Source: an uncultured Gemmatimonadales bacterium
GTDB taxonomy: Bacteria > Gemmatimonadota > Gemmatimonadetes > Gemmatimonadales > Gemmatimonadaceae
Direction of reading: 5' to 3'
DNA: 64,000 bases
Assembly (NCBI GenBank): GCA_963851265.1
Contig: CAWKNZ010000007.1
Location: forward strand, 96,001 to 160,000
Positions 9,244 through 63,519 of this stretch are shown here, one piece after another. The notes below the pieces were generated by a model that saw nothing but the letters and a program-made list of their open reading frames with translations, did no database searches and had not been told where the DNA came from. The position numbers and the translations under genes were made by a program. How positions within the stretch are numbered: position 1 is the first letter of the stretch; every line of letters starts with the position of its first letter.

Positions 9244-10471
9244 CCCGGGGCTCCGGGATCGGCAGGATGAACTGGCCACCGCGCAGGCGGTACTCCTCCT
9301 GCTGCTGCATGATCTCGTCGCCGAAGTTCCACGCCAGGATCAGCAGGTAGTCGGGTGCGTCCTCGAGGACGCGCTCGGCCGGTACGACCGGGATGTGCAT
9401 GCCCGGCGAGTACTTCCCATGTTTCAGCGTGTTGCGGTCGGCGAGGAAGTCGAGCAGATCCGGACCGATACCGTAATAGTTGAGCAGGGTGTTGCCCTTC
9501 GCTGGCGCGCCGTAGCCTGCGAGGCGCTTGCCACGCGCCTTGAGGCCGCGCAACGTCGTCACGAGCTCGTCGCGGATGCCGTGCACGCGCGCCGCGAGGT
9601 CATCGTACGTGCGGCGCTCGAACAGCCCGCGCTCGCGCTCGCGATCCAGCCACGCCTGTACCACCGGAACCTCTGCCCCGTCGGCGGTCGCCGCGCGGCG
9701 CTGCGCCACCACGCGCATCGAGCCACCGTGGATGGGCAACACCTGGACGTCGACGATCCGCATTCCGAAGAACCGGTACAGCGCCGCGAGCGACGTAACA
9801 CTGAACGTGGACAGGTGCTCGTGGTAGACCGTGTCGAACTCGTTCTGCTCGACGAGCGCCAGCGCCTGTGGCACCTCGACGATGAAGCGCCCGTCTGGCG
9901 CGAGTAGCGTGTCGACGCCGCGCATGAATCCGTGCAGGTCGTCGATGTGATTGAACGTGTTGCTCGTCGTGATCACGGCCGCCGGCCCATGCCGCGCCCG
10001 GAGCTCGCGGGCCGTGTCGGCCGTGAAGTAGAGGTTCTCGACTTCCAGCCCCTTCGCACGCGCGAGCGCGGCGATGTTCGCGGCGGGCTCGACGCCTAAC
10101 GTATCGAGTCCGCCCGCCTTACACGCGGCGAGGAGCAGGCCGTCGTTGCACCCGATGTCGACGACCAGCTCACCCGGTGCGCGCGCGAATCGGTCGCGGA
10201 TCTGCCCGGCGAACGCGCTGAAATGCGCCAGCATCGTGTCGCTGGCCGATGGCACGTACACGTAGTCCTGGAAGAAGTCGGCCGGCAGCTGGTCCGCGAC
10301 CTCGATGACCGCGCAGTCGAGGCAGACCTGACAGTCGAGCGGGAACACGGCCTCCGGCCTCGTCAGCTGTGCCTCGGTCAGGAACGCGTTCGCGGGCGGG
10401 TGATCGCCCAGCGGCAGGAATGTGTACAGGTTGTCGCTGGTACACGCGCGGCAGACTGTCATCGGCGCCAT
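9233..10471 (-). CDS. NDP-sugar C-methyltransferase (TylC3/EryBIII/NovU-like architecture)
   Basis: N-terminal CRAC...CLDC Zn site, VVDIGCNDG, FDTVYHEH, IHGGSMR, GYGAPAKGNTLLN and LILAWNF. Confidence 0.9.
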   Translation of the reverse strand: MAPMTVCRACTSDNLYTFLPLGDHPPANAFLTEAQLTRPEAVFPLDCQVCLDCAVIEVADQLPADFFQDYVYVPSASDTMLAHFSAFAGQIRDRFARAPGELVVDIGCNDGLLLAACKAGGLDTLGVEPAANIAALARAKGLEVENLYFTADTARELRARHGPAAVITTSNTFNHIDDLHGFMRGVDTLLAPDGRFIVEVPQALALVEQNEFDTVYHEHLSTFSVTSLAALYRFFGMRIVDVQVLPIHGGSMRVVAQRRAATADGAEVPVVQAWLDRERERGLFERRTYDDLAARVHGIRDELVTTLRGLKARGKRLAGYGAPAKGNTLLNYYGIGPDLLDFLADRNTLKHGKYSPGMHIPVVPAERVLEDAPDYLLILAWNFGDEIMQQQEEYRLRGGQFILPIPEPRVVS

Positions 10472-10500
10472 GGGTATGCCGTCCGGATCTGGGGGAGGGG

Positions 10501-11628
10501 TCAGTGGGCCGCCACCTGGCGGACCACGTCCAGCGTCTGTCGCGTCGTCCGCTGCCACCGTAGCGTGGCGGCACGGGCGAGTGCACGCTGCACGAGATCC
10601 GCGCGGAGCGCGCTGTCCGTGAGCACGCGGCCGATCGCGTCCGCGAGAGATTCCACGGTTGGCGTGTCAAGCGTGAGCGCGTGGCCTGCGGCCAGCTCAC
10701 CGAGGCCGCCGCGGTTGGTCGCGACGACAGGCGTGCCGCATGCCATCGCTTCCACGGTGGTCATCGACCACCCCTCGTACGTCGACGGGTGGACGAATAC
10801 GTCGGCCGCGCTGTAGATCGGGACCAGCTCGCGGTGGTCGACGATCTGGCCGTCCGTCTGTACGACGTCGCCCGTAATGCCCAGCTCCTCACAGATCGCG
10901 CGGAGCGGCAGCTGATCCGGATTCGGCCCGAACAGCAAGAGTCCATGCGGGATGTGCATCTCGTGGCGAAGGCGTGCGAACGCCTGCAGCAGCATGGGAA
11001 TGTTTCGGCGCGTCGAGGACTTCCCCGCGAACAGCAGGTACGGACGGTTCCCGCCGAAATGCGTGTGTCGCACGGCTGCGAGGGTCTGTGCGTCGTGAAT
11101 CGGTTGGAAACAGTCGTCCGCTCCTTGGAGCACGACGACCATGCGTTCGGCTGGAATCCCCCAAGTGCGCGCGATATCGCCCTTCGTCGACTCCGACGCG
11201 ACGATGACTGCATCGGCGCGTTCGGCGCTGTGCCTGTACAGTCGGCCGTACGTGTGCGGATACCACCACGCGTGCGCGCCCGACTGGATCTCGTTGATGC
11301 TGTGCGTGGCGACGACGAGCGGACCCCGGTACGCCAGGGGGGCCGTGTACGCAGGGCAGAACAGGACGTCGAGGCGTCCGGCCTGACGACGTAACGCCAC
11401 GTTCTCCCACGGAATTCCCGAGATGTCGGGCGCGAGCACCGTTTCGCGAACAGCGGTCGACAAGCCCAGATACGCACGGCTCGACGCGTCGAGCGGACGC
11501 CGGACGAAGAGGTTCAACTCGTCGGTCTCATCGAGCATGCCGCTCCAGTAGCGCAGCATGTACTCGATGTAACGCCCCACGCCGAGTCGCTGGCCCGCGA
11601 GGCGATGTCCGTTGAATCCGATGCGCAC
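10501..11628 (-). CDS. GT4-family glycosyltransferase
   Basis: GVGRY, ADVFVHPSTYEGWSMTTVEAMACGTPVV (EX7E). Confidence 0.9.
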   Translation of the reverse strand: MRIGFNGHRLAGQRLGVGRYIEYMLRYWSGMLDETDELNLFVRRPLDASSRAYLGLSTAVRETVLAPDISGIPWENVALRRQAGRLDVLFCPAYTAPLAYRGPLVVATHSINEIQSGAHAWWYPHTYGRLYRHSAERADAVIVASESTKGDIARTWGIPAERMVVVLQGADDCFQPIHDAQTLAAVRHTHFGGNRPYLLFAGKSSTRRNIPMLLQAFARLRHEMHIPHGLLLFGPNPDQLPLRAICEELGITGDVVQTDGQIVDHRELVPIYSAADVFVHPSTYEGWSMTTVEAMACGTPVVATNRGGLGELAAGHALTLDTPTVESLADAIGRVLTDSALRADLVQRALARAATLRWQRTTRQTLDVVRQVAAH

Positions 11629-11646: not shown

Positions 11647-12903
11647 TCAGCGATACTGCCCGGCGAACGCGCGGACCTGCTCGTGCACGTAGTCGAGCTG
11701 GAGTTCACTCAAGCCATGATGGCAGGCGAGCAGCATTCCACCGCGCATCACGCGGTCCGCATTCGGATAGCCGTCCGGCGACTCGTGCCGCATGATGCCG
11801 GCGAATCCTGGTTGGCGCAGGATGTTGCCCGTGAACACCGTGCGGGTCTGGATCCCACGTCGTTCGAGAAAGATCTGCAGGTCGCGGCGGATGAATGGCG
11901 CGTCGTCTCGCACGATGAGGGGGAACGCGAGCCAGCCGGTCGACGATGCCTCGGCCTGTCGCGGAAGCACGAACCACTCCTCGTATTCGGCGAAGAACGC
12001 GCGCTGCCGCGCAAAATTGCGGGCGCGCGTCTCGACGTTCCCGGCGAGCCGGTCGAGCTGCACGAGCCCGAACGCGGCGCCGATCTCCGACGGCTCCATG
12101 TTGTAGCCGACGCGCGAGAACACGAATTTCGCGTCGTATGGAATTCCACCCACGTCGACGTTGAAGCGATTCTCGACCCGCTCGGAATCCACGAACAGCG
12201 ACGAGCTACGACCCCAGCTCCGCAGCAGGCGCGCCTCCTCGTTCCACTCCTCCCGATTCACGCACAGCATGCCGCCGTTTCCGGCGCAGTTGATGACATG
12301 CGATCCGTAGAAGCTCGTCGTGCTGATGTCGGAGCGCGTGCCGGTACTCGTGCCGCGGAGGGTCGCGCCTAACGTGTCGGCGGAGTCCTCGATCACGTAC
12401 AGGTCGCGCGCCCGCGCGATCTCGGCGATGCGGTCCCAATCCGGCAGGTTGCCGATGAGCGAAGGAACCATCACCGCCCGCGTTCTCGGGGTGAGTGCCG
12501 CCTCGACCTGGTCGACATCGATGTTGAACGTGTCGGGCTCGACGTCCACGAAGGCGGGCACCAACCCATTCTTGACGAGCGGGGCCACCGTCGTGGCGAA
12601 GGTGAGCGCCGGCGTCACCACCTCGGCTCCGGCCGGCAAGCCGAGTAGCTCGACCGCGAGGTAGTTCGCACTCGAGCCAGAGTTCACCATCACGCCATGC
12701 CGTTTCGCGAACAGCGCCGCGATGCGCGCCTCGAACGCGCGCACGCGCGGGCCCATCTGCGTCGACGTGCGCAGCACCTCGAGCACGGCTGCGATCTCCT
12801 CCTCGCCATGTACGGTCTGGCCGTACGGCACGCGCAGCATCTCGGCGGGCGGCGACATATCGATCCTGAGACTGTTCGTGGCGCTGCTCGTAGCGTTGGT
12901 CAT
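11647..12903 (-). CDS. DegT/DnrJ-family PLP/PMP enzyme, RfbH(DdhC)/ColD-type sugar 3-dehydratase
   Basis: VNSGSSAN, TFATTV, IEDSAD and SFYGSH with His at the usual Schiff-base Lys position; follows rfbF-rfbG. Confidence 0.8.
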   Translation of the reverse strand: MTNATSSATNSLRIDMSPPAEMLRVPYGQTVHGEEEIAAVLEVLRTSTQMGPRVRAFEARIAALFAKRHGVMVNSGSSANYLAVELLGLPAGAEVVTPALTFATTVAPLVKNGLVPAFVDVEPDTFNIDVDQVEAALTPRTRAVMVPSLIGNLPDWDRIAEIARARDLYVIEDSADTLGATLRGTSTGTRSDISTTSFYGSHVINCAGNGGMLCVNREEWNEEARLLRSWGRSSSLFVDSERVENRFNVDVGGIPYDAKFVFSRVGYNMEPSEIGAAFGLVQLDRLAGNVETRARNFARQRAFFAEYEEWFVLPRQAEASSTGWLAFPLIVRDDAPFIRRDLQIFLERRGIQTRTVFTGNILRQPGFAGIMRHESPDGYPNADRVMRGGMLLACHHGLSELQLDYVHEQVRAFAGQYR

Positions 12904-13991
12904 GGCGTCGGGTCTGCGCCGTCGACGCGGCGCTCGTAGGCAAGCAGTTGCTCGCGGACCAGCGCTCCAGCCCGCGATGGATCGTCGTAGAACGCACGGT
13001 ACCAGCCGACCGTCAGGTCGACCGTCTCGCGCAACGTCAGCGCCGAGCGCCAGTCGAGGCGCGTGGCGGCCTTCGCGGAGTCGAGCACCAGTAGCTGTGC
13101 CTCTTGCGGTCCACCGACCTCCGGCGCGAAATCGGCCGCCACCCGGTCCCACGCGACGGCCATCCGCTGCACCACGTCGCGGACCGGCACCGCACCGTCC
13201 GCGTCGGGCCCGAAGTTCCACGCCTCCGCGAACCGCTGACCGCACTCGACCAGCGCGCGGCCTAACAGCAGATACCCACGCAATGGCTCGAGGACGAACT
13301 GCCACGGCCGAACGGCGTCGGGGCACCGAACGGGCGTGCGCTCGCCCGTCGTCGCACCACGCATGAGGTCGGGCACGAGGCGATCGGTCGCCCAGTCACC
13401 GCCGCCGATCACGTTGCCGGCGCGCGCAGAGGCGACCGCCGCCGCCGCCGAGTCGAGAAACGACCGGCGCATCGCCGTCGTGACCAACTCCGCGCACCCC
13501 TTGCTCGAACTGTACGGGTCGTGCCCGCCGACGGCGTCATCCTCGCAGTAACCGCGGGGCAGGGCACGATTGTCATAGCACTTGTCGCTCGTCACGACTA
13601 CCACGGCGCGGACGGTCCCGACGGGCCGCACGGCGTTCAGGAGGTGCACGGTTCCCATCACGTTCGTCGCGTACGTCGCGACGGGATCGGCGTACGAGCG
13701 CCGAACGAGCGACTGCGCCGCGAGGTGGAACACCAACTCCGGCGCCGCCGCACGCAGCGCGCCGGCGAGCGCGGCTTCGTCCCGCACGTCAGCGAAGATC
13801 GACTGTACCCCGTCGCCGATCGCGGCCGCCTCGAACAGGCTCTCTCGGCCCCGCTCGGGCGGAAGCGCGTAGCCGACGACCGTCGCACCCACGTCGCGCA
13901 ACCACGCGGTCAGCCACGCACCCTTGAACCCAGTGTGGCCGGTGACGAGCACGCGCCGGCCGCGATACCACTCGCGCAGCGCGCCGTTCAC
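12900..13991 (-). CDS. rfbG: CDP-glucose 4,6-dehydratase
   Basis: VTGHTGFKGAWL, HLAAQSLVRRSY, TSDKCY, DPYSSSKG, RAGNVIGGGDW and RPWQFVLEPL. Confidence 0.95.
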   Translation of the reverse strand: MNGALREWYRGRRVLVTGHTGFKGAWLTAWLRDVGATVVGYALPPERGRESLFEAAAIGDGVQSIFADVRDEAALAGALRAAAPELVFHLAAQSLVRRSYADPVATYATNVMGTVHLLNAVRPVGTVRAVVVVTSDKCYDNRALPRGYCEDDAVGGHDPYSSSKGCAELVTTAMRRSFLDSAAAAVASARAGNVIGGGDWATDRLVPDLMRGATTGERTPVRCPDAVRPWQFVLEPLRGYLLLGRALVECGQRFAEAWNFGPDADGAVPVRDVVQRMAVAWDRVAADFAPEVGGPQEAQLLVLDSAKAATRLDWRSALTLRETVDLTVGWYRAFYDDPSRAGALVREQLLAYERRVDGADPTP

Positions 13992-18493: not shown

Positions 18494-18932
18494 GCGTCCA
18501 ACACCCGTTCGCTGTAGCAGAACCGGTGCACCAAGGGCACACGTCGGTCGTGCCGTGCATCACGTCGATCGTGAGCCCCGTATGCAGCGCAGTGATCGTG
18601 ACGCCCTCGGCCGCAGCACCTACACCGAAAGAGACAAGCGATCTGCGACGCATCGATATGCAGTGATCGGTATCACGACGGCAACAATACCCGCATCGCT
18701 TGGTTTCCCCGGTCCGACGGCGGCGCGGGGTCTGGTCGTGACACCCCGCGTGGCTGACGCGTCTCTTCGCGTCACCAGCACCGGCCCTACGACGGCCGGC
18801 CCCCACGGAACACCACCGTGGCGCACCCCTCGATAGGGGCGGCCGCATCACGACGAGACGACGGTCCTGTGCGATTCTGCGTCGGGCCCGCCCCGTCGAT
18901 ACGCCTAACGGTTTACAAGGACGTTCTGTAAC

Positions 18933-20603: not shown

Positions 20604-22046
20604 TCAGCCCGCCCTCGGATCGGGCGTGACGTCGGTCGCCTCAGCGGGCGGCGCGTCGTATCCGCGAAGCTGACCGAGGGCGAACACGAACGGGAGTACG
20701 GCGACGCGCATCCCGACGTGCCCCATCGAGAACAGCACCCATGTCAACCAGAGGGCGCGGAGGCCGCGCTCGGGCGCATTCTGCATCTGCAGCAGTGCCG
20801 TGAGCGCCATGCCGAGCAGGGCGAGTACCGCGATCGCGCCGAAGGTGCCGTGCTCGCTCAGGAGTCGCGTGTACTCGGTGTGGGCCACCTTCGAATCGGT
20901 CCGCCGCTCGCGATACGCGCCGCCCGGACCGAGCCCGAGGATCGGGTGTTCACCCCACAGGCGCCAGTCCTCCGCCATGATCTCGTCGCGGTGGCTGCTC
21001 GTCGTCTCCGAAAATCGCGCGTCGAGTGCACCACCGGTGAACGCGTTCAATCGTGGCAGCACGACGGCCGCGAAGAGCGCGGCGATGACGACGATACCGA
21101 CGGTGAAGGCCCGGCGCGTCGCCCGCGCCCGGAGCATGAACGGCGTGGCCGCGATCACCGCGGCGCCGAGGCTGTACAGCCCCCCGCGTGAGAAGGTCAT
21201 CACCGATTGGGTTAGGCACAGCATCGCCACCGCGCCCAGCGCGCCCCGCTCGAGTTTCGGGGCGCTCGCGTCCAGCAGTCGGGGCAGGCAGTACAACACG
21301 CCGAGTCCCAGCACGACCGAGACCTGATTGGGTCCGTACCCGCCGCTCGTCGCGAAATTGGACTCCTCCGTAAAGGCGAGTTGTGCCGTCGAGTACGTGG
21401 TGAACACGGTCACGGCCGCAATCCCGAGCACCGGCGCGAGCCCGACGAACAACACCCGCTGGAACTCGGCGCGCGTGAGCGAGAGGACTGAGGCGTACCA
21501 GGCTGCCGCGCCAAGCGCGAGAGGCGGAACGAGGTTGAAGCCGAACATGATCATGAACTCGCGCGTCGTGTACGTGCCGTCGCTGGCCGGCACGAGCAAC
21601 GACGGTAGCAGCGCGACGAGGAACACGAACGGCAGCAGGCGCATGCGGAAGGCGTCGCGCGACCGCACGAGTCCCGCGATCGCGAGCAGCAGCACTTCGT
21701 ACTTCGCCGATTCCCACGGCGCGCGCCCGTCGGACATTCTCCAGAGCACCTCGGCACTCGCGGCGTACGCGGCGACGCACAGCAGCGTTACCGGACGCGC
21801 CGCGATCATCGCGACCGCGCCCACCAAGAGGATCGCCACGCCGTAGATGGTCGCCAGCACGGCCGACCGGTGGACGAGTAGCCCGAGGGGAACGTGGAGC
21901 CCGAGTAGCAGGCCGCCGACGATCCAGCCGGGGAGTGTGCCATCGCGACCGGTGCCGGTCACCCGCGCCGGCGACGGACGCGTTCCCCACGCGCCAGCCC
22001 GTGCCGGCGCCGCCGTTTGCAAACGCCGCTCAGAGAGTTGGTCCAT
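20604..22046 (-). CDS. O-antigen ligase/polymerase (Wzy_C/WaaL-like) membrane protein
   Basis: Many TM segments with PNQ, TFSRGG, R...W...HPILGLGPG and AHTEY...LSEHG. Confidence 0.8.
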   Translation of the reverse strand: MDQLSERRLQTAAPARAGAWGTRPSPARVTGTGRDGTLPGWIVGGLLLGLHVPLGLLVHRSAVLATIYGVAILLVGAVAMIAARPVTLLCVAAYAASAEVLWRMSDGRAPWESAKYEVLLLAIAGLVRSRDAFRMRLLPFVFLVALLPSLLVPASDGTYTTREFMIMFGFNLVPPLALGAAAWYASVLSLTRAEFQRVLFVGLAPVLGIAAVTVFTTYSTAQLAFTEESNFATSGGYGPNQVSVVLGLGVLYCLPRLLDASAPKLERGALGAVAMLCLTQSVMTFSRGGLYSLGAAVIAATPFMLRARATRRAFTVGIVVIAALFAAVVLPRLNAFTGGALDARFSETTSSHRDEIMAEDWRLWGEHPILGLGPGGAYRERRTDSKVAHTEYTRLLSEHGTFGAIAVLALLGMALTALLQMQNAPERGLRALWLTWVLFSMGHVGMRVAVLPFVFALGQLRGYDAPPAEATDVTPDPRAG

Positions 22047-45459: not shown

Positions 45460-45474
45460 GCGCCACCCGCCCGC

Positions 45475-46731
45475 TCACCCCTCCCGCAACCCGGGCACGC
45501 GCGCGTACACCCACGCCGCGTACGCCAGCATCGCCGCGCCACCCGCCGCGATCACCCAGTCCACCCCCACCGCGCGCGCCAGCGCCCCGCCGGCCAGCGC
45601 CCCGACCCCCTGGGCCATGCCCACGACGAGGAACGAGTACGCCGCCATGAGCCGCCCGCGCATGGCGTCGGGCACCGTCCGCTGGAGCACCGCGTTGCCT
45701 AACGCACCCGAGACGATCATCGCGACGCCCGTCGCCAGCAGCACGACCTCGGCCGCGACGACGTTGCGCACCGCGGCGAGCGCGACGAGGAGCACGGGGT
45801 AGGCGACCGTCGACCACATCAGCCACCGCCCCGGGCGCACGCGCGCGCCGAACGCCGCGAGGCCCAGCGCGCCGGCGAGTCCGCCCGCCCCCACCGCGGC
45901 GAGCAGCGCGCCGTAGCCACGGGCGCCGAGTCCCAGCACGTCGCGCGCGAGCACCGACATCAGCGCGAGGTACGGCGTGCCGCACACCGAGTAGACGAGC
46001 GTGAGGCCGAGGATCGCCCGAACCGTCGGGACGCGCCACACGTAGCGGAAGCCCTCCGCGAGCCCGTCCCACGGCGAGCCGTGGTGCGCACCGCGCTCCG
46101 CGCGCGGAAGGCGGATCCGGAGCAGCCCCGCGAGGACGGCGAGGTAGCTCAGCGCGTTCAGCCCGAAGCACCACCCGATCCCGAGTGTCGCGATCGCGGC
46201 GGCGCCGAGCGCGGGGCCGACGATGCGCGCGAGGTTGAAGCCGCTCGAGTTGAGCGCGATCGCCTGCGGCAGATCGTCCCGTCCCACCAGGTCGACGATC
46301 AGCGACTGACGCGCCGGCACCTCGAACGCCGTACAGGTGCCGCCGAGGCAGGCGAGCGCGAGCATCCAGTGGATCGTGACGTGGCCCGAGACGGTCAGCG
46401 CCCAGAGCGCGACGGCCTGCACGAGCAGCATGGCCTGCATCGCGGTGACCAGCCGCAGCCGGTCCACGCGGTCGACGAGCACCCCTGCGGGGAACGAGAG
46501 TACGAGCACCGGGAACGCGCCCACCGAGGCGACCAGGCCGACCAGAAACGGGTCGTTGGTGAGCTGCAGGGCGAGCCATCCTTCGGCCATGACCTGCATC
46601 CACGTGCCGACGAGCGACGCGGTCTGCCCGAACCAGAACAGCCGGAAGTTCCGGTGCCGGGCGAGGGTTCGGAACGGGTTCAGCGACGTGGCGGCTGCAC
46701 GGGCGCGGGATGGACCGACGGACGATGACAC
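45475..46731 (-). CDS. MFS transporter (start uncertain)
   Basis: RHRNFRLFWFGQ..S.VGTWMQ, GVLVDRVDR, PARQS, NLARIVGPALG and MRGRLM. Confidence 0.9.
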   Translation of the reverse strand: MSSSVGPSRARAAATSLNPFRTLARHRNFRLFWFGQTASLVGTWMQVMAEGWLALQLTNDPFLVGLVASVGAFPVLVLSFPAGVLVDRVDRLRLVTAMQAMLLVQAVALWALTVSGHVTIHWMLALACLGGTCTAFEVPARQSLIVDLVGRDDLPQAIALNSSGFNLARIVGPALGAAAIATLGIGWCFGLNALSYLAVLAGLLRIRLPRAERGAHHGSPWDGLAEGFRYVWRVPTVRAILGLTLVYSVCGTPYLALMSVLARDVLGLGARGYGALLAAVGAGGLAGALGLAAFGARVRPGRWLMWSTVAYPVLLVALAAVRNVVAAEVVLLATGVAMIVSGALGNAVLQRTVPDAMRGRLMAAYSFLVVGMAQGVGALAGGALARAVGVDWVIAAGGAAMLAYAAWVYARVPGLREG

Positions 46732-46746
46732 GAGACGCGAGCGGGT

Positions 46747-48151: not shown

Positions 48152-49276
48152 CGACACGGCCACCGCGTACGGGAACCCGACGCCGAGGGCCCGCACCTCG
48201 ACCGGGAACAGCTCCGCCTTCACGACCGCGTTGACCGCCGTGTAGCCGCTCACGACGAGGAGCGCGGCGACGAGCAGCACGAACGCCCGCCCCTCGCCGA
48301 CGCCGCGCGTGCCTAACGCACCGAGCAGCGGCACCGTCGCGAGCGCGCCGAGCACCCCGAACGCGACGAGCACCGGCCGCCGCCCCACGCGGTCGGACAG
48401 CGCGCCGACGGCCGGCTGCGCGACCGCGAAGGCGAGCAGCGACGCGGCCGACACGCGCGTGGCCGCGGCGGACGTCCACCCCGCGCTGTTGACGAGGAAC
48501 TTCTGCGCGTAGGTCGTGAACGTGTAGAAGGCGACCGTGCCCCCCGCGGTGAGCCCGACCACCGTGGCGACGGCGCGCGGATGTGCGGCCAGGGCGCGCA
48601 GCGACGCGCGCCCGGGTCCGGCCCCCGCGCGCACGAAATCCGGCGTCTCGTCGAGGCGGCCGCGCAGCAGGCGCACCGCGAGCGCGGCGAGCGCGCCTAA
48701 CACGAACGGCACGCGCCACCCCCAGGCGGCGAGTTGCGCGGGGGTGAGCGCGCGCTGCAGCACGAGCAGCGTGCCGAGCGCGAGCAGCTGCCCGGCGATG
48801 AGCGTGACGTACTGGAAGCTCGACCAGAAGCCGCGGTGGCGCGCGCCGGCCATCTCACTCAGGTACGTCGCGCTCGCGCCGTACTCGCCGCCCACGCTCA
48901 GGCCCTGCAGCAGCCGCGCGCCCACGAGCAGCGCGGGCGCTGCGAGCCCCGCCCGGGCGTAACTCGGCACGAGCGCGACCGCGAGCGACCCCGCGCCCAT
49001 GAGCAGCACCGAGCGCGTGAGCGCCGCGCGCCGCCCGCGCCGGTCGCCGTAGCGGCCCAGCAGCCAACCGCCGACCGGGCGCATGAAGAAGCCGACGGCG
49101 AACACGGCCGCCGCGTCGAGCAGGTGCGCCGTCTGACTCGCCGGCGGGAAGACGATCGGCGCGAAGTAGAGCGAGCACGCCGAGTACGCGTACCAGTCGT
49201 ACCACTCGACGAGATTCCCGGCCGAGCCGCCGAGGATGGAGCGAAGTCTGCGCACCGTGCCGCCGCTACCTTGCAT
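47981..49276 (-). CDS. MFS metabolite:H+ symporter (KgtP-like)
   Basis: GNLVEWYDW, FFMRPVGG, QGLSVGGEYG, SFQYVTL and KAELFP...RALGVG. Confidence 0.9.
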   Translation of the reverse strand: MQGSGGTVRRLRSILGGSAGNLVEWYDWYAYSACSLYFAPIVFPPASQTAHLLDAAAVFAVGFFMRPVGGWLLGRYGDRRGRRAALTRSVLLMGAGSLAVALVPSYARAGLAAPALLVGARLLQGLSVGGEYGASATYLSEMAGARHRGFWSSFQYVTLIAGQLLALGTLLVLQRALTPAQLAAWGWRVPFVLGALAALAVRLLRGRLDETPDFVRAGAGPGRASLRALAAHPRAVATVVGLTAGGTVAFYTFTTYAQKFLVNSAGWTSAAATRVSAASLLAFAVAQPAVGALSDRVGRRPVLVAFGVLGALATVPLLGALGTRGVGEGRAFVLLVAALLVVSGYTAVNAVVKAELFPVEVRALGVGFPYAVAVSLFGGTAEYLALWARKAGHERWYFWYVAACVAASLVVYLRMPETRDRGTLAGEPGAG

Positions 49277-51443: not shown

Positions 51444-54035
51444 TTAGTGCGCGGCCGCCGCGAGCGCGAGCGCGTGACCCGACGGGCGCCGCGCGAGCGC
51501 CGCCGGATACGGCACGCCCGGCCCCTTCACCGTGCGCCAGAGCACGCGGTTGAACGTCCCCTCGTCCGCCGCGTCCTCCACGTCCAGCGCGAGGCGGGAG
51601 CTCGCGCGCGCGTCCGCCGGCGTGGTGTTGGTCGCCGTGTTGCGCTCCTCGAGCGGGACGGCGGGCGTGAGCGCGGCATAGGGGCGAAAGTCCGGCGTCG
51701 CGGCCCAGACGTCGTGCAGCGGTCGCGCGAACGCGTCGAACTGGCTCATCCGCCCCAGATGCAGCGCCTCCTCGATGGTCGCGAGCACGTCGGTGGTGTT
51801 GGTCCAGCGGTGCACCGCGCCGGGCCGGCTCCAGGCCGAGATCGCGAGGAACGGGGCGCGGTGCGAATCGACGTGGTCGGGGCCGTTCTGGGCGTCGTCC
51901 TCGACGACGAACATCACGGTGTTGCGCCAGTAGGGCGAGCGCGAGAGCGCCTCGACCATGCGGCCTAACGCGAGGTCGTTGTCGGCGAGGTAGGCGCGCG
52001 GCGTGTGGCTGCCGCGGCGCGCGCCGGCGGTGTGGTCGTTGGACAAGCGCACGAGCTCGAGCGCGGGCATCTGCCCGTTGCGCGAGAACTCCTGCAGCTC
52101 CGCGATCCAGCGGTCGGCGCGGAACTGGTCGGGGATGTCGAGGTCGAACCCCGGCGAGAGCGTGTCGGTGTGCGTGAGGAGGAAGGCCTTGGTGCCGCGG
52201 TACCGGGCCGGGCGCGCGCCGGGCCCGGAGGGCGGCGCCGTGCCCTCGTCCGAGACCGCGCCCTCGGGCACGACGAACTCGCCGTAGTTGCGGAACGACG
52301 CGCCCGCCGCGCGCGCGAGGTCCCACAGGTACCCGCTCGCGGGCTCCGCGACGTCGTCCGTCGGGATGTCGCGCGTGGAGAAGCCGCGGTTGGTGCCCTC
52401 GAAATCGTAGCTCCGGCCGCGCCCCGAGTAGTTGATCGGCACGGTCTTCTGGACGTACTCGGTGGCGTACGCCGCGGTACTCCAGTTGTGCCCGTCCCCG
52501 CTCACCTCCGCGTTCACGAAGAACCGGTCGAAGATCCCGAACCGCTCGGCGAGGGCGTGGTGGTTGGGCGTGTTGGCGCGCGGGAAGAACGTGAGCGAGG
52601 TGTCGCCGTCGGCCTGCGCGAGGTCGCCGAGCAGCTGGTCGTAGGTGCGGTTCTCCTTGATCACGTAGACGACGTGTGCGAACGGCGGGATGCGACCCGC
52701 GAGCCCCGCCGCGCGGCCGCCGTCCCAGCCGTCGGCCCGCGTCACGCGCGCGCCTAACGCCGCCAGCCGGGCGGCGTCGCCGAGGGCGGAGAGGGGCAGC
52801 GCGGTCACCGTCCCGCCGATCTGGCTGAGCGTCGTGTTCGCGCCGCGCGAGCCCTGCTTGTCGAGCGACAACCGCGGCTGCGGGCCGTCGGGGTTGGGCG
52901 CCGTGCCGCGCCCCTTACCGTCGGCGGAGTAGACGGTGTCGCCGAGCACGGCGACGGCGGTGGGGTACCAGCCCACCGGTGCGCGCCCGAGCAGCGCGCC
53001 CGCGCCGTCGGCCGCCAGCGAGAACACGGCCACGGCGTTGTCGTCGCTCTCGCCCACGTACAGCCGCGACTCGTCCGCCGAGAGCGCGAGCGCGGCCGGT
53101 GTGCTCCCCTCACGGATCGCGCCAACAGCGGACGCGGGTGGCGCGTCGTCGAGCGTTGCCCGCGTCGCGAGCGTGCGCGTGTCGACCACGAGCACCCGGT
53201 CGGTGTTCGTCGAGGCGACGAACAGCCGCCGTCCCGCCCGGTCGAGGAGCAGCGACGACGGGTGCCGGGCGACGTGCACGTCCCGCACGCGTCCTAACGC
53301 GCCCGCCCCGTCCGGGTCGAACACGCTCAGCGTGGTCCCGCCCCACGCGCTCACGAACACCCGCCCCTCGGGCGTGACGGCAACGCCGTACGGGTAGCGC
53401 TCGGTCGGGAGCCGCTGGAGGACGCGTCCGCTCTCGACGTCCAACACCGCGAGCCCGTCGCCGAGGTTCTCCGCCACGTAGAGGCGGCGCCCGTCGGGCG
53501 AGAGCGCGAGCCCGGCCGGATAGCGCGTGCCGTTGGTGCGCGGCGTCCGCCGGGCCGCGAGGATCAGCGAGTCGACCCGCTCCAGCCGTCCGCCGGCCCA
53601 GCGGTAGCGATACACCACGTCGGCGTTGCCGCCCGACGTGTAGAGCGTGCGCGAGCCGTCCGCGTTCGGGGCGGGCGCCCAGGCGAGCCCGACGAACGCA
53701 CTCGCCTGCTCCACGGTCTGCCGCACGCGCCCGGTCGCGCGATCGAGCACCTGCACCCCTTCGCCGTTCCACCCGCACCCGAGGAGGACGAGCGCGTCGC
53801 CGTCGGGGGCGGGGAGCATCGTCAGCGGCATCGGCAGCACGTCGACCTGCCGCCCGGCGGGGTCGAGGTGCTGGCCGTTGGGCAGTCGCCGCGCGCCGGT
53901 GTCGAGCGACACGCCGCTGACGGCGCGAGCGGCGGTCGCGTCGGGGCGCGACGTGGCGGAGCAGCCCGCGCCGACGACGGCGGACGCGACGGTGAGCGCG
54001 GCCGCAGCGGCGCGCGCAGGCAGGGAAGGGCGCAT
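51444..54035 (-). CDS. Lipoprotein with YncE/YVTN beta-propeller and C-terminal phosphoesterase domain
   Basis: Lipobox GAG-C, ALSPDG propeller repeats, IKENRTYD, SGDGHNW and EDDAQNGPDHVDSHR. Confidence 0.88.
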   Translation of the reverse strand: MRPSLPARAAAAALTVASAVVGAGCSATSRPDATAARAVSGVSLDTGARRLPNGQHLDPAGRQVDVLPMPLTMLPAPDGDALVLLGCGWNGEGVQVLDRATGRVRQTVEQASAFVGLAWAPAPNADGSRTLYTSGGNADVVYRYRWAGGRLERVDSLILAARRTPRTNGTRYPAGLALSPDGRRLYVAENLGDGLAVLDVESGRVLQRLPTERYPYGVAVTPEGRVFVSAWGGTTLSVFDPDGAGALGRVRDVHVARHPSSLLLDRAGRRLFVASTNTDRVLVVDTRTLATRATLDDAPPASAVGAIREGSTPAALALSADESRLYVGESDDNAVAVFSLAADGAGALLGRAPVGWYPTAVAVLGDTVYSADGKGRGTAPNPDGPQPRLSLDKQGSRGANTTLSQIGGTVTALPLSALGDAARLAALGARVTRADGWDGGRAAGLAGRIPPFAHVVYVIKENRTYDQLLGDLAQADGDTSLTFFPRANTPNHHALAERFGIFDRFFVNAEVSGDGHNWSTAAYATEYVQKTVPINYSGRGRSYDFEGTNRGFSTRDIPTDDVAEPASGYLWDLARAAGASFRNYGEFVVPEGAVSDEGTAPPSGPGARPARYRGTKAFLLTHTDTLSPGFDLDIPDQFRADRWIAELQEFSRNGQMPALELVRLSNDHTAGARRGSHTPRAYLADNDLALGRMVEALSRSPYWRNTVMFVVEDDAQNGPDHVDSHRAPFLAISAWSRPGAVHRWTNTTDVLATIEEALHLGRMSQFDAFARPLHDVWAATPDFRPYAALTPAVPLEERNTATNTTPADARASSRLALDVEDAADEGTFNRVLWRTVKGPGVPYPAALARRPSGHALALAAAAH

Positions 54036-56465: not shown

Positions 56466-59170
56466 TTGCCCCGCCGCCCGGCGCCGTCCGGGTGCAGGAT
56501 GCGGTCGATCTGATCGCGCGCGCCCTGCAGGTGCAGGCGCGTCGTGCGGTCGGTCGTGCGCCCCACGGCGGCGGCGATCTCGCGGTCGAGGTCGACGAGC
56601 TCGCCCCGGAGCAGCGCGCGCGCGTCGACGGCGTTGACCGGCGTGAGAAAGCGCACCACCTCGGGCGGCAGCCCCGGCGGGACGGCCGGCGCGGCCGACG
56701 GGTTGAGCTTCGCCCCGATGACGTCGAGGTAGGCGAGCTGCAGCCGGCGCCGGAACGGGTCGATCGCCGCCCCGCGCGGCAGCTCCGTCCAGATGCCGCG
56801 TCGCAGGTCACCGAGCATCTCGCCCACCGCGTAGGTGTCGCGGTCGGCGCCCATCCCCTCCTGCTCGACCATGCGCTGCAGGCGCGCGTTGTCGAGTAGC
56901 GTGTTGAGGATGCGCCGCTGCGCCGTGCCCAGGCGGTCGATCGAGCCCGAGGCCTCGATCTTCCGCAGCACGCTCGGGTCGAGGAGGTACTCGGGGGTCT
57001 GGAAGGCGTTGGCGTTGAGGAACGCGACGGCCGCCTTCTGCCGGGCGCGCGGGATGCGCGAGTAGACCTCGCCCTTCTGGCCGACGTACTTCTCCTGCTT
57101 GTAGTCGCCGCCCGGGATGCGCGCCACGTGCCCGAGCTCGATCGCCCACTGGCCGACGAGGCGGTTGTAGAGCTCCTGGAGGTCGTCGTACGGCTCGCCC
57201 GGGCGCGTCTCGGTCGCGCCCTCGAGCAGGCGGGCCACCCGGCGGATGTTCTTGATGCCTAACGCGGTCGCGCGCACCGCGTCCTGGTCGCCCACCGCCT
57301 CGCTCGCCTCGCCCGGGTCGGGGCCCTGGATGCCCTCGTCGCCGCCGAAGCGGTACCAGGGCACGCTGTCCTGCATGCGCGACCAGCGGTCGGTGGTGGG
57401 CTTCTCCGCGTCCGCGGTGGCCGCGCCCGGGATGGGCGTGTAGCCCCACATGATCGCGTACTTGTCGTAAGGCCCCACGCGCGGCACCAGGTCCTCGAGC
57501 GCGATGTGGTCCTCGGGCTGCGCCACGTAGTTGTAGCGCGAGTAGTCCATGATGCTCGGGCTGTGCCCCATGCGGTGCACCCACGCGGCGGAGCGCACCG
57601 AATCCATCGGGTACATCGAGCTGCCCTTCATGTCGTGGCGCAGCCCCATCGTGTGTCCCACCTCGTGCGCGACGACGAACTGCATCAGCCGCCCCATGAG
57701 GGAGTCGGGGAAGGGCAGGTGCTGCGCGCGCGGGTCGAGCTGGCCGACCTGCGTGAAGTACCAGGCGCGGTTGAGGTTCGTGACGTTATGGAAAATTTGC
57801 ACGTCGGCGTCGAGGATCTCGCCGCTCCGCGGGTCCACCGTGCTCGGACCGACCGCGTTCTCCGTGGCGCTCGGCACCCAGCGCACCATCGAGACGTTCG
57901 CGTTCTCGCCGCGCAGGATCGCCACCGAGTCGCGCGGCACCTCGCGCGCGACGATCCCCTGCTTGAAGCCCGCGGCCTCGAACGCGCTCTGCCACTCCTC
58001 GATCCCCTTCTTCACCCAGGGCACGTAGACGGTGGGCGTCGCCGGGTCCACGTAGTAGGTGATCGGGCGCTTGGGGTAGCAGAGGTTGCCCTCGCGCCGG
58101 TCCGAGCACTCGAGGCGCCAGCGGTTGATGAAGCTGACCCGCCGCACGCGCTGCTCGCGCGAGCCGAAATCGGACTGCTGCGTGTTGAAGTAGCCGACGC
58201 GCTCGTCGGAGAGCCGCGGCTTCATCGGCACGTCGGGCAGTCGGACGAGCGAGAAGTGGTACAGCTCCGTCCCGGTCGGCGTCGGCCCGAAGAGCGCGGC
58301 GACCGGGCTCGCGGCGAGGAAGGGCGACGCGTTGCCGAACGTCTGCGACGCCTCGATCTCGACGTTGCGCGGGTAGGCCGCGACGCTCTCGACGAACGAG
58401 CGCGACGGGTCGGCGCTCGCCCGCGAGCCGCCCTGGAGCAGGTCGGACACGCCGCCCGTGAACAGCCGCGACACCTCGACCACCGCGCTCGAGTCGGGGC
58501 CGTAGGCCTCGACGTTGAACGCGGCGATGATCGGCGCGTACGTCACGATCTCGACCGCGCGCGCGACCGGGTTGGTGGTGTCGGCCACCACGTTGCGGTA
58601 CTCGATGCCGCGCAGCAGCAGGCGGTTCTCGCGGCGCTCCCAGCGCACGAGCCGGTTGCCGGCGAGCGTCGTGAACGCGAGCCCGCCGGACGGCGCCTGC
58701 GTCCCGCGCAGCGTGCGCACGATGAGCATGTCGCGGTTCAGCTGCGCGCGCGGGATCTCGAAGTAGAGGCGCCCGCGGGTGAGGTGCGTCGTGACGAGGC
58801 CGTGCTGCGTGCGCGCCCCCGGCGTGATGACGAAGTTGTACGGGCGCGGGCTCGGGTCGCCGCCCGCGCCGCCCGTCATGCTCGCCATCATCGCGGCGAG
58901 GTTGGGCGGCCCGGCCGCCGGCGTACCGCCCGGCGTCGGCACGCCGGGCGTGCCCGGGGTCGTCGGCGAGGCCGCGGCCTGTGTCGGGCGCGACGACGAC
59001 GACGGCGCGGGGGTGGGCGCGTTCTCGGGCGAGCGCCACTGGCACCCGGACGCGAGGAGCGCCGCGAGCAAGGCGGCGACCGGCGGCATCGCGTGTGACA
59101 GTGTCGCATGCGACGGCGTCGCGCGCGACGGGTGTGCGCGACGGCCGCGCGCGGGCGGGAGGCGAAGCAT
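56462..59170 (-). CDS. Zinc-dependent metalloprotease lipoprotein (metzincin-type; alternative start 59089)
   Basis: HEVGHTMGLRH, SIMDY Met-turn, lipobox ASG-C, DERVGYF and DPRSGEI. Confidence 0.9.
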   Translation of the reverse strand: MLRLPPARGRRAHPSRATPSHATLSHAMPPVAALLAALLASGCQWRSPENAPTPAPSSSSRPTQAAASPTTPGTPGVPTPGGTPAAGPPNLAAMMASMTGGAGGDPSPRPYNFVITPGARTQHGLVTTHLTRGRLYFEIPRAQLNRDMLIVRTLRGTQAPSGGLAFTTLAGNRLVRWERRENRLLLRGIEYRNVVADTTNPVARAVEIVTYAPIIAAFNVEAYGPDSSAVVEVSRLFTGGVSDLLQGGSRASADPSRSFVESVAAYPRNVEIEASQTFGNASPFLAASPVAALFGPTPTGTELYHFSLVRLPDVPMKPRLSDERVGYFNTQQSDFGSREQRVRRVSFINRWRLECSDRREGNLCYPKRPITYYVDPATPTVYVPWVKKGIEEWQSAFEAAGFKQGIVAREVPRDSVAILRGENANVSMVRWVPSATENAVGPSTVDPRSGEILDADVQIFHNVTNLNRAWYFTQVGQLDPRAQHLPFPDSLMGRLMQFVVAHEVGHTMGLRHDMKGSSMYPMDSVRSAAWVHRMGHSPSIMDYSRYNYVAQPEDHIALEDLVPRVGPYDKYAIMWGYTPIPGAATADAEKPTTDRWSRMQDSVPWYRFGGDEGIQGPDPGEASEAVGDQDAVRATALGIKNIRRVARLLEGATETRPGEPYDDLQELYNRLVGQWAIELGHVARIPGGDYKQEKYVGQKGEVYSRIPRARQKAAVAFLNANAFQTPEYLLDPSVLRKIEASGSIDRLGTAQRRILNTLLDNARLQRMVEQEGMGADRDTYAVGEMLGDLRRGIWTELPRGAAIDPFRRRLQLAYLDVIGAKLNPSAAPAVPPGLPPEVVRFLTPVNAVDARALLRGELVDLDREIAAAVGRTTDRTTRLHLQGARDQIDRILHPDGAGRRGN

Positions 59171-61308: not shown

Positions 61309-62115
61309 ATGCCGACGCGCCTAACGCACGACCTGCTCGACGAGCGCCCGCTCCCCGGCGGGGGCCGCCGGATCACGCTCCGCTTCGGACGCGAGGGCGA
61401 AGCCGAGCGCGTGCCGGGGCTGCTGCTCGTCCCCGACGGCGCCGGCCCGACCCGGCTGGCGCCCGCGGCGGTCCTCCTCCACGGCTACTCGTCGCGCAAG
61501 GAAGACATGGCCGAGTTGGTGGGGCACGGACTGCTGGCGCGCGGCATCGCCTCGCTCGCCATCGACCTGCCGTTGCACGGCGAGCGGCGCGGCGACGTCG
61601 ACTTCCGCTCGGTGCGCAACCCGCTCGCGCTCGCGCAGGCCTGGCGCCGCGGCCTCGCCGACGGCAAGCTCGCGCTCGGCTACCTCGGCGCCCGCCCCGA
61701 GGTCGACGCCGACCGCCTCGCGCTCACGGGCTACTCGATGGGCAGCTTCCTCGGCGTGCAGATCGCGGCCGACGCGCCGGCCGTGCGCGCCCTCGTCCTC
61801 GCCGCCGGCGGCGACCTGCCCACGGGTACGCCGTTCGACCGCCTCGTGCGCGCCATGGCCGACCCGCTCAAGGCGGTGCGGCGCTTCGACGGGCGCCCGC
61901 TGCTGATGGTCCACGGCCGGCGCGACAGTACGGTACGCCCCGAGCAGGCGCAGCGCCTGTTCGACGCGGCCGAGGAGCCGAAGGAGCTGCGCTGGTACGA
62001 CGCCGGGCACTACCTACCGGCGTCGGCGATCGACGACGCCGTGGCGTGGCTCTCGGAGCGCCTCGCGCGCCGGAGCGGCGTCCAGGGGCGCGGCGAGAGC
62101 GCACGCTCCGCGTGA
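61309..62115 (+). CDS. Alpha/beta-fold hydrolase
   Basis: LLHGY, GYSMG, HGRRD and AGH catalytic-triad motifs. Confidence 0.88.
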   Translation: MPTRLTHDLLDERPLPGGGRRITLRFGREGEAERVPGLLLVPDGAGPTRLAPAAVLLHGYSSRKEDMAELVGHGLLARGIASLAIDLPLHGERRGDVDFRSVRNPLALAQAWRRGLADGKLALGYLGARPEVDADRLALTGYSMGSFLGVQIAADAPAVRALVLAAGGDLPTGTPFDRLVRAMADPLKAVRRFDGRPLLMVHGRRDSTVRPEQAQRLFDAAEEPKELRWYDAGHYLPASAIDDAVAWLSERLARRSGVQGRGESARSA

Positions 62116-62124
62116 CGACGCGCT

Positions 62125-63519
62125 CTGCCGACCGCGTGCGAGATCGCGGCGGGCGTGCGCGCCGGCACGCTCGGCGCGCGCGCGGTCGTGCGCGAGGCGC
62201 TCGCGCGCATCGCCGCGCGCGACCCAGCGGTAGGCGCGTTCGAGCGCGTGCGCGACGCGGAGGCGCTCGCCGAAGCCGGGGCGGTGGCCGAGCGCCCGGA
62301 CCGGGCGCGACTGCCGCTCGCCGGCGTGCCGGTCGCGGTCAAGAACAACGTCGACGTCGCCGGCGAGGTCACCGCTAACGGCACGCTCGCGTGCGCGCCG
62401 CACCCGGCCGCGCGCGATCACCCGACCGTCGCGCGGCTGCGCGCCGCCGGCGCGGTCGTCGTCGGCGTCACGCGCGTGCCCGAGCTGTGCCTCTGGCCGT
62501 TCACCGACGGCCCGCGCGGCACGGCCCGCAACCCGTGGGACCCCGCGCACACGCCGGGCGGCTCGAGCGGCGGCAGCGCCGCCGCGGTCGCGGCGGGGAT
62601 GGTCCCGCTCGCGTTAGGCAACGACGGGCTCGGCTCGATCCGCATCCCGGCCGCGTGCTGCGGACTCTTCGGCCTCAAGCCCGGCCGCGGGGTGGTGCCG
62701 GCCGAGGTCGGCGCGCACGCGTGGTTCGGATGGTCGGAGAACGGGCCGCTCGCGACCACCGTCGACGACGCGGCGCTCATGTTCGCGGTGCTCGCGGGGC
62801 GCGACCACGCGGACGGCGCGCGCGACACGTTCGCCCGCGAGGCCGGCGCGGTCTCGGGGACGCCCTCGCGGCTCCGCGTCGCCGTCGCGCTCGGCCCCCC
62901 GACGCCCGGCGTGCGCGTGGATCCGGCGTGGCGCGCGGCGGGCGCGCGGGCGGCCGCCGCGCTCGCCGAGGCGGGGCACCGCGTGACGTCCGCCGCCCCG
63001 CCCGCGCCCCTCCGCTTCGTGCCGCGGATCCTCGCCACCTGGATGGCCGGCGCCGGTGACGATGCCGACGCGCTCGCGGCCGCTGGCGGCGATCTCACGC
63101 GCCTCGAACGCCGGACGAAGCGGCACATCGCGGCCGGGCGGCGCCTGCGCACGCTCGGCCTCGTGCGGCAGGAGGACCGCGACGCGTGGCGTGCGCTGCA
63201 GCTGCGCTTCTTCGACGACTACGACCTGCTCGTCACGCCGACGCTCGCCCGCGCCCCGCTTCCGGCGGACGGGTGGGCGCGCCGCGGGTGGCTCGCGACG
63301 CTCAAGGCGTCGGTCGACGTGGCGCCGTTCACCGGAGGGTGGAACGTGGCCGGATTCCCGGCCGCGAGCGTGCCGATGGGCGTCGACGCGCGAGGGCTGC
63401 CCGTCGCGGCGCAACTCGTCGCGCCGCCCGGTGGCGAGCAGCAGCTGCTCGACGTCGCCCGGCTACTCGAGCGATCGCTGCCGTGGCCGCGCACCGCGCG
63501 TGTTGGTCAGCTTGACTAA
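62125..63519 (+). CDS. Amidase-signature-family amidase (start uncertain: CTG 62125 or GTG 62155)
   Basis: PLAGVPVAVK, NPWD..TPGGSSGGSAAAVAAG and GNDGLGSIRIPA. Confidence 0.9.
   Translation: MPTACEIAAGVRAGTLGARAVVREALARIAARDPAVGAFERVRDAEALAEAGAVAERPDRARLPLAGVPVAVKNNVDVAGEVTANGTLACAPHPAARDHPTVARLRAAGAVVVGVTRVPELCLWPFTDGPRGTARNPWDPAHTPGGSSGGSAAAVAAGMVPLALGNDGLGSIRIPAACCGLFGLKPGRGVVPAEVGAHAWFGWSENGPLATTVDDAALMFAVLAGRDHADGARDTFAREAGAVSGTPSRLRVAVALGPPTPGVRVDPAWRAAGARAAAALAEAGHRVTSAAPPAPLRFVPRILATWMAGAGDDADALAAAGGDLTRLERRTKRHIAAGRRLRTLGLVRQEDRDAWRALQLRFFDDYDLLVTPTLARAPLPADGWARRGWLATLKASVDVAPFTGGWNVAGFPAASVPMGVDARGLPVAAQLVAPPGGEQQLLDVARLLERSLPWPRTARVGQLD

Follow-up and report, generated by a model that had tools for sequence, protein, structure and literature searches.

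A frame-independent DNA word, (C/T)GTTAGGC, in scattered Gemmatimonadota genomes and its possible role as an uptake-type self-tag

Copies of GTTAGGC in the window

The stretch analysed here, which we call the window, spans 64,000 nucleotides (G000:C7:96001-160000) of a Gemmatimonadales assembly (G000; 4.60 Mb, 12 contigs, 73% GC). Dispersed along it is a heptamer, GTTAGGC or its complement GCCTAAC, hereafter the word, which the original prediction had picked out by eye as a candidate iterated signal acting at the DNA level. An exact-match search recovered all 21 copies, positions and strands included, and they are listed below with the strand on which GTTAGGC reads. Genes were called with a crude caller based on GC content at third codon positions (GC3; 69-84% coverage per contig), complemented by a list of open reading frames (ORFs) and by Pfam matches; the frames of the copies at 12367 and 28619 come from arithmetic on ORF ends. 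G001 and G004 are two congeners.

10094..10100 (-): ACG-TTA-GGC (Thr-Leu-Gly), sense, in a C-methyltransferase gene (9236-10666, -)
12367..12373 (-): ACG-TTA-GGC, sense, in a DegT/DnrJ aminotransferase ORF (11647-13326, -)
13260..13266 (-): CTG-TTA-GGC, sense, in an epimerase/dehydratase gene (12903-14018, -)
18903..18909 (-): outside called genes, between genes at 17042-18559 (-) and 18909-20510 (+)
21211..21217 (+): antisense to a Wzy_C (O-antigen ligase-like) gene (20607-22160, -), which reads TGC-CTA-ACC
26574..26580 (+): antisense to a gene without Pfam match (25953-27581, -), which reads TCG-CCT-AAC (Ser-Pro-Asn)
28619..28625 (-): CCG-TTA-GGC, sense, in a family 2 glycosyltransferase ORF (28448-29449, -)
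31975..31981 (+): antisense to an asparagine synthase gene (30606-32615, -), which reads CGC-CTA-ACT
34858..34864 (-): ACG-TTA-GGC, sense, in a NeuB-family gene (34486-35727, -)
41644..41650 (+): CCG-TTA-GGC, sense, in a short-chain dehydrogenase gene (40562-41761, +); in G004, not G001
41885..41891 (-): CTG-TTA-GGC, sense, in a DPP-IV/S9 peptidase gene (41804-44206, -); in G004, not G001
42428..42434 (-): GCG-TTA-GGC, sense, in the same DPP-IV/S9 peptidase gene (41804-44206, -); kept in G001 and G004
45455..45461 (+): TAG stop (CGT-TAG-GC) of an FmdA_AmdA acetamidase/formamidase gene (44107-45456, +); left edge of the segment inverted in G004
45697..45703 (-): GCG-TTA-GGC, sense, in an MFS_3 transporter gene (45478-46983, -); kept in G001 and G004
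48311..48317 (-): GCG-TTA-GGC, sense, in a sugar/MFS transporter gene (47984-49396, -); kept in G001 and G004
48695..48701 (-): GTG-TTA-GGC, in the sugar/MFS transporter gene (47984-49396, -); specific to G000, with G-CTC-GGC in G001 and G004
51963..51969 (-): GCG-TTA-GGC, sense, in a phosphoesterase/beta-propeller gene (51447-54317, -); kept in G001 and G004
52752..52758 (-): GCG-TTA-GGC, in the phosphoesterase/beta-propeller gene (51447-54317, -); specific to G000, with CTC-GAC-type sequence in the congeners
57257..57263 (-): GCG-TTA-GGC, sense, in a Met-zincin (DUF4953) gene (56465-59272, -); kept in G001 and G004
61319..61325 (-): antisense to a hydrolase gene (61237-62112, +), which reads CGC-CTA-ACG (Arg-Leu-Thr); kept in G001 and G004
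62613..62619 (+): GCG-TTA-GGC, sense, in an amidase gene (62116-63516, +); kept in G001 and G004

The predicted frames also hold: 15 copies read xxG-TTA-GGC, three CTA-ACN (21211, 31975 and 61319) and one CCT-AAC, one supplies a TAG stop and one lies outside called genes. Two near matches had been proposed; the one at 53292 exists (GTTAGGA), and at 62373 there is nothing within one mismatch. None of 100 dinucleotide-preserving shuffles of the window reached 21 copies (mean 2.41, sd 1.52, largest 7). The 6-7 copies originally expected from base composition were thus too many, and the excess is larger than had been thought. Synonymous-codon shuffling of the called genes in the window gave the same picture, with 17 copies observed and a mean of 1.33 expected (largest 3 in 12 shuffles). 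The window shows no enrichment of one-mismatch neighbours taken as a class (95 sites), and all matches at one mismatch or fewer number 116 against a shuffle mean of 104.8. No Rfam match and no tRNA gene were found in the window.

The window falls into two parts. Positions 40951-64000 are syntenic with G001 and G004, and in this part 7/12 of the G000 copies are shared with G001 and 9/11 with G004. Positions 1-40950 are not syntenic with either and hold a lower-GC (66-71%) biosynthesis cluster of the sugar/O-antigen type (C-methyltransferase, DegT aminotransferase, epimerase, Wzy_C, family 2 glycosyltransferase, asparagine synthase and NeuB); the cluster carries nine copies, at about half the density of the right part. 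Within the syntenic part, G000 and G004 differ by an inversion of the segment 45502-55153 (edges 45378-45502 and 55153-55250). At these edges the word stands in inverted orientation, as GTTAGGC at 45455 and, at 55166, as GCCTGAC, which is GCCTAAC in G001; G004 has word copies at both edges.

Abundance, reading frames and distribution of the word

The whole G000 genome holds 885 + 877 = 1762 copies in 4.6 Mb. Markov models of orders 0-3 expect 396, 160, 96 and 126 copies, and training on word-masked sequence lowers the expectation to 64 (order 2) and 19 (order 3). A maximal-order model expects 1722 copies, and it fits because the 6-mers inside the word are almost confined to the word. A codon-aware null model was built from 12 shuffles of synonymous codons within genes, which keep each protein and its codon counts. 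Against this null, the called genes hold 1139 copies where 77.8 ± 7.3 are expected (largest 95), a 14.6-fold excess that is conservative because the shuffled pool contains the rare codons of the word itself. The outcome that would have overturned the original prediction, a ratio near 1 after such shuffling, was not obtained. As the original prediction had anticipated, TTA codons are concentrated in the G_GGC context (784/1163, or 67%, in called genes), and 1762 of the 2470 TTAG/CTAA tetramers genome-wide (71%) lie inside the word. Sequences one mismatch away stand at no more than 1-3 times their expectation under word-masked Markov models, and the transition neighbours among them are at 2.0-2.2 times (GTTGGGC), 2.4-2.8 times (GTTAGAC) and 1.0-1.8 times (GTTAGGT). 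The abundance is therefore of the order that marks uptake words: hundreds to thousands of copies, at least tenfold above composition- and codon-aware expectation.

The enrichment extends to every frame in which the word can be read. Among amino-acid-compatible sites in called genes, the word occupies 784/8747 X-Leu-Gly sites (9.0%) and 61/3438 Val-Arg-[LPHQR] sites (1.8%); in antisense, it occupies 218/1367 X-Pro-Asn sites (16%) and 76/1628 [CSRG]-Leu-Thr sites (4.7%). The rare codons that it uses make up only 1-4% of their codon families. It also supplies 55/586 TAG and 86/310 TAA stop codons, so that all four stop-free frames and both kinds of stop are enriched, on both strands. C immediately precedes 78% of Leu-Gly copies and 82% of Pro-Asn copies, against backgrounds of 42% and 49%, and this shared preference falls at different codon positions in the two frames. 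The consensus is accordingly preceded by a pyrimidine, mostly C: (C/T)GTTAGGC. Enrichment in all frames, on both strands and in stops, together with the same flank in two frames, identifies a signal at the DNA level and not an effect of TTA codons, as originally claimed; (C/T)GTTAGGC is a DNA-level word, neither a codon nor a peptide effect. Control of translation through TTA codons, of the bldA type, had been argued against at the outset, and we reject it, as antisense and stop frames are enriched equally or more.

This word comes at a measurable cost to proteins. The observed/expected ratio of Pro-Asn is 1.06-1.10 in three word-poor genomes, 1.13, 1.21 and 1.25 in the genus of G000 (g1), 1.40 in G008 and 1.76 in G012, and thus climbs with word density; these ratios rest on crude gene calls and, for some genomes, on small samples. 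The peptide composition of the proteome is distorted, as for uptake words, and uptake signal sequences (USS; Pasteurellaceae) and DNA uptake sequences (DUS; Neisseriaceae) are described as co-evolving with their proteomes (PMC2817400).

Along the chromosome, spacing is near Poisson (mean 2592 bp, median 1806 bp), except that gaps shorter than 200 bp are too few (46 where 130 are expected). We also observed direct pairs exactly 12 bp apart at three places (G000:C8:143543/143555, 241285/241297 and 305728/305740). Copies that lack a clear local coding periodicity make up 31.1% of the total, the same as the background proportion (31.1%). Regions of higher local GC are denser in the word, with 2.0 copies per 10 kb at the low end and 6.2 at the high end. 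When genes are ranked by GC3, X-Leu-Gly occupancy is 14.8% in the top quartile and 4.5% in the bottom one, the opposite of what relaxed codon bias predicts.

Orientation tracks the gene strand, and the sense orientation prevails even in presumed lagging-strand genes. Because replication skew is undetectable in G000, replichores could be inferred solely from gene orientation; on that basis, the word lies on both strands and in all frames without strong replication polarity. In one region, X-Leu-Gly occupancy is 9.9% with GTTAGGC on the presumed leading strand and 6.6% on the other (p = 0.04), and a genome-wide proxy based on gene orientation is not significant. The polarity that would accompany a Chi- or KOPS-like site (KOPS, FtsK-orienting polar sequences) is thus weak at most, with occupancy differing no more than 1.5-fold between presumed leading and lagging genes.

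The longest word-free stretch measures 45,086 bp (C1:182876-227962, GC 73.8%) and holds the genes that classically lie near the origin: mnmG/gidA, parA, parB and mnmE. The parB zone is also word-poor in two congeners (three copies within ~35 kb in G001, two within ~20 kb in G004), and between-species identity in the word-free zone is lower than in its flanks (74-79% vs 83-88%). We reject a word-free origin zone conserved beyond the genus, as the parB zone is not word-poor in G304, G292 or G121.

The phylogenetic range is scattered. All five genomes of G000's genus are word-rich (977-3304 copies), and the richest genome, G012, belongs to another genus (7758 copies in 5.1 Mb); a 141.6-kb sample of it with 62.6% GC contains 204 copies, with a core that has moved slightly towards CGTTAGG(C/T). 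When 301 genomes were sampled evenly across the phylum, high counts of the 8-mer were confined to scattered genera of three families in one order, and no genome of the other nine families exceeded 70 copies. Counts within genus g76 run from 181 to 1061, G011, G085, G203 and G124 fall among the word-poor genomes and bear none of our conclusions, and density among rich genomes spans about tenfold, ~0.16 to 1.5 copies per kb. One spelling thus recurs in three families, while most genera and one member of a rich genus are near background. The word-poor G035, from another family, has top words of its own (G035:C4:100001-300000), namely intergenic tandem heptads, (GGTRAGA)n, with inverted pairs 70-150 bp apart at ~0.3 per kb; these are a different kind of repeat from GTTAGGC.

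Turnover among congeners and candidate readers

To follow individual copies, we compared 220,869 positions aligned in G000, G001 and G004, whose pairwise identities are 0.823 (G000-G004), 0.810 (G000-G001) and 0.801 (G001-G004); G001 was taken as outgroup from these identities, without a tree and with small margins. Scored in the order G000, G001, G004, copies are distributed as +++ 36, +-- 22, --+ 32, -+- 56, +-+ 15, -++ 24 and ++- 8. All three species keep 36/81 G000 copies (44%), compared with 14-24% for five 7-mers built of preferred codons and 0-8% for five rare 7-mers. Tip-specific copies number 54 for the word and two each for GCTAGGC and GTTAGCC. Raw parsimony yields more gains than losses for every 7-mer at such divergence, and only the comparison with controls carries weight. 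Where a word site reads otherwise, it most often has GCTCGGC, which is two changes away, or GTTGGGC. A smaller, earlier sample had suggested control-like turnover and is overridden by the larger three-way sample. The word is under active maintenance, and new copies are still being written.

Word density correlates weakly with between-species identity (rho 0.20-0.44, p 0.04-0.15; 0.23-0.43 as a partial correlation on GC). The word is therefore commonest in the most GC3-rich and most conserved DNA, which we count as a link to proxies of recombination.

Competence machinery is present in G000: ComEC, DprA, two secretins, a comEA-pilB-pilT operon (G000:C7:759615-763226, outside the window), PilT and a FimT-like pilin. 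In every relative checked by coordinates, rich or poor, ComEA lies within ~3 kb of the best PilT match, and this gene neighbourhood suggests a pilus-linked DNA receptor module that spans the whole order. Among nine prepilin-type genes in G000, one encodes a FimT-like minor pilin (G000:C7:452369-452836) of 155 aa that is very basic (isoelectric point 11.9) and ends in SRLGRVR. The terminal GRVR matches the C-terminal GRxR motif that is reported to contribute to DNA binding by FimT (PMC8897410). In an alignment of 30 FimT-like sequences from three families, 28 have the GR.R end and two are cut one residue short by the match bounds.

We assembled a panel of 21 word-rich and 21 word-poor genomes for candidate readers. 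A large Eco57I-family ORF (type IIG/L-like methyltransferase/endonuclease, ~1000-1170 residues) occurs in 41/42 panel genomes, a conservation unusual for a restriction-type gene; in G000 it lies outside the window at C7:583220-584149. As a determinant of the word it is rejected, being found in word-rich and word-poor genomes alike. For the end-processing enzymes that read Chi sites, RecC has no match in G000, and an AddAB-like helicase-nuclease gene pair lies outside the window at G000:C3:244523-251686. Searched with the G000 protein as query (E <= 1e-10), an AddB-like protein appears in 10/42 panel genomes and was not found in the rich G001, G004, G012, G304, G240 and G297. The G000 pair is an accessory end-processing system.

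Possible functions of the word

We propose that (C/T)GTTAGGC is read on the DNA itself and that a process favouring word-bearing DNA would keep it far more frequent than mutational equilibrium allows. Most likely, a type IV pilus competence system would take up word-bearing DNA preferentially; homologous recombination would follow, in the molecular drive that lies behind USS in Pasteurellaceae and DUS in Neisseriaceae. We put the probability that the word is an uptake-sequence-like self-tag upheld by transfer-biased drive at roughly 0.45. Its two inferred components are uptake as the favouring step and a receptor specific for the word. Among the functions originally suggested, the uptake type fits best, and the Chi/KOPS type is disfavoured.

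Several observations weigh against an uptake word. None of the candidates tested follows word richness, and no word-specific receptor was found among these known families: in the panel, PilT (42/42) and the FimT-like pilin (41/42) occur in rich and poor genomes alike, ComEA (39/42) does not follow richness, and a PilW-like pilin (38/42) is missing from the word-rich G001 and from genus g76. No column of the 30-sequence FimT-like alignment separates rich from poor, and ComP_DUS (PF16732) has no match in G000, its weak matches elsewhere not following the word. The co-distributed methyltransferase or ComP-like gene that the original prediction had proposed to look for was thus not encountered among those tested. 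The core of 7-8 bp is shorter than a DUS or USS. Richness is patchy within genus g48, where G240 and G297 have 3896 and 4141 copies of the 8-mer but G293 has 66. No dialects were seen, and no hyper-abundant alternative word appeared in samples of the word-poor G006 (400 kb) and G021 (200 kb). Sequence flanking tip-specific copies has diverged no further than background (7.1% vs 6.9-7.3%); import of new copies from divergent donors is therefore unsupported, donors of the same species being invisible to this test. Finally, among the entries listed by literature searches on Gemmatimonadetes uptake, competence and attC, none reports this word or natural transformation in the phylum.

Comparison with known iterated words places this one nearest to the uptake class, which its anatomy and evolution resemble; its membership is putative. 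Highly iterated palindrome 1 (HIP1, GCGATCGC) of cyanobacteria shows a comparable excess and is likewise written into genes in any frame, but it is a palindrome linked to methyltransferases, whereas the word is asymmetric. Chi and KOPS are, like it, short, asymmetric and over-represented on chromosomes; the word differs in lacking strong replication polarity, in the absence of the reading enzymes from most rich genomes and in its much larger excess. The tags of Neisseria and Haemophilus are similarly written into ordinary genes against the organisms' own codon habits. Shared with DUS, which are read by the minor pilin ComP, are a hyper-abundant non-palindromic word, type IV pili, a competence toolkit and, though patchily, occurrence among related species. 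The word differs from DUS in the missing ComP_DUS-family match and in that its copies are rarely in inverted pairs; moreover, it keeps one spelling in three families, whereas DUS are described as having dialects (PMC3630211). The resemblance to USS lies in a short exact word every ~0.7-3 kb, mostly in genes, on both strands, in the least costly frames and with a flank preference, and in a measurable distortion of peptide composition, as reported for USS (PMC2817400, PMC3458573). Unlike USS, the word has a 7-8 bp core without AT-rich flanks in the context table, belongs to another phylum and, where USS are family-wide, is patchy across genera and within a genus. For USS, too, the receptor is at the stage of prediction, with ComN as the candidate according to a preprint (bioRxiv 10.1101/2025.06.16.659825). 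The targets of Ssn-type single-strand nucleases were considered and rejected, as they are described as hairpin repeats of roughly 30 bp, unlike the word (PMC11893778).

Other readers of the same DNA were weighed against these observations. The word could be the binding site of an abundant chromosomal protein (nucleoid-associated, nucleoid-occlusion-like or chromosome-organising), kept by selection at each site without a role in transfer. An exact asymmetric 8-mer, the shortage of short gaps, positional conservation above controls and the word-free stretch around parA/parB, word-poor in two congeners too, are all consistent with this. However, a tenfold spread in density and close relatives near background would be odd for a structural role, the parB zone is not word-poor in G304, G292 or G121, and it is unlikely that weak selection on individual sites could preserve thousands of them in the face of codon bias and a cost to proteins; we consider this reading unlikely. 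Bias could instead enter at export, if the word marked where a gene-transfer-agent-like particle or generalised transducing phage begins packaging, or where DNA is nicked for chromosome mobilisation, so that word-bearing DNA left the cell more often. The signature would be the same as that of biased uptake (gain, retention and the link to recombination proxies), and a mobile or easily lost determinant would explain the patchiness across three families, but the pac and nic sites described so far are longer and much rarer, and we hold this route to be improbable. Still less probable, in our view, is a HIP1-like drive in which a methyltransferase marks the word and near-matches are turned into it by very-short-patch-type repair. 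In its favour are an excess comparable to that of HIP1 and the Eco57I-family ORF found in nearly all panel genomes, which would be an available methyltransferase with changeable specificity; that gene is, however, also present in word-poor genomes, and the word is not palindromic. Very-short-patch-type drive itself is rejected, as Vsr (PF03852) has no match in G000 and transition neighbours are not depleted. A Chi-like hotspot read by an AddAB or RecBCD end-processing enzyme would suit an asymmetric 7-8-mer, the AddAB-like pair of G000 and the weak leading-strand trend. It is largely refuted, and we give it very little credence: RecC is missing from G000 and AddB-like proteins from most word-rich genomes, orientation follows gene frame with a non-significant genome-wide polarity proxy, and known Chi sites show a far smaller excess, excesses this large being typical of USS, DUS and HIP1. 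Chi, KOPS, bldA-type and very-short-patch-type readings are all disfavoured.

The resemblance to integron recombination sites is closer than first supposed, and the original prediction was right that GTTAGGC fits the integron core GTTRRRY. In G000, about eight inverted word pairs 60-150 bp apart fold as attC hairpins, four of them at C10:188936-203786 and one at C6:1592-1702 beside a split intI. Their R boxes, R'' = (C)GCCTAACG and R' = CGTTAGGC(G), are the same nine bases as the genome-wide consensus, flanks included. Most word copies in G027 and G029 are arranged as inverted pairs, 83-125 bp apart, within cassette arrays, and IntI scores above the curated cut-off in 25/41 relatives. Copies might then be secondary sites, decoys or substrates of IntI or a related tyrosine recombinase, and the inverted copies flanking the inversion between G000 and G004 would suit such an activity. 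But IntI does not follow richness, being intact in many word-poor genomes, split into two pieces ~2 kb apart in G000 (C6:3005-6044), partial with a stop in G001 and in three frame pieces in the richest genome, G012, and we reject it as the reader. The attC-like pairs account for <1% of the 1762 copies, and >99% are single, inside intact genes and without a hairpin partner. Of the 16 sequences that GTTRRRY allows, GTTAGGC alone is strongly enriched, and the remaining GTTA variants stand at 0-0.75 times the shuffle mean. The word is not significantly associated with rearrangement breakpoints (8/18 vs 28/90 collinear gaps), a candidate link that we also reject. The word therefore has the core spelling of an attC R box without the inverted R''...R' pairing or the co-occurrence with IntI, and an integron-related reading of the genomic copies is, in our judgement, improbable to much the same degree as export. 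A related and slightly less improbable idea, though a long shot, is that a competence receptor tuned to the integron R box (CGTTAGGCG) would preferentially fish cassettes and relatives' DNA, the genomic copies being a by-product of molecular drive. Chromosomal integrons recruit cassettes from transformed single-stranded DNA, as described for Vibrio cholerae, where uptake is not sequence-selective (PMC12614218), so that such a receptor would have a clear use. It would, if real, physically couple natural transformation to cassette capture.

We believe that several elements are new here: the three-way analysis of conservation and gain with controls, the codon-preserving null, the correlations with GC3 and identity, the gradient in Pro-Asn, the exclusion of nine candidate readers by panel tests and the nine-base identity with the attC R box. 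In the literature covered by our searches, neither the 7-mer, the 8-mer nor their complements are reported as such a word. To our knowledge, words that bias DNA uptake are established only in two proteobacterial families. Should (C/T)GTTAGGC prove to be an uptake-type self-tag, it would be a third case, in soil bacteria of the Gemmatimonadota, and DNA self-tagging would be a wider strategy. The patchy, on/off distribution between close relatives offers natural contrasts for finding a receptor and for measuring the rates at which drive writes and erases the word, and the exact spelling shared with integron cassette sites raises a testable link between transformation and cassette capture. In practical terms, the word marks its lineage strongly, which is of use in binning soil metagenomes and in recognising recently acquired DNA.

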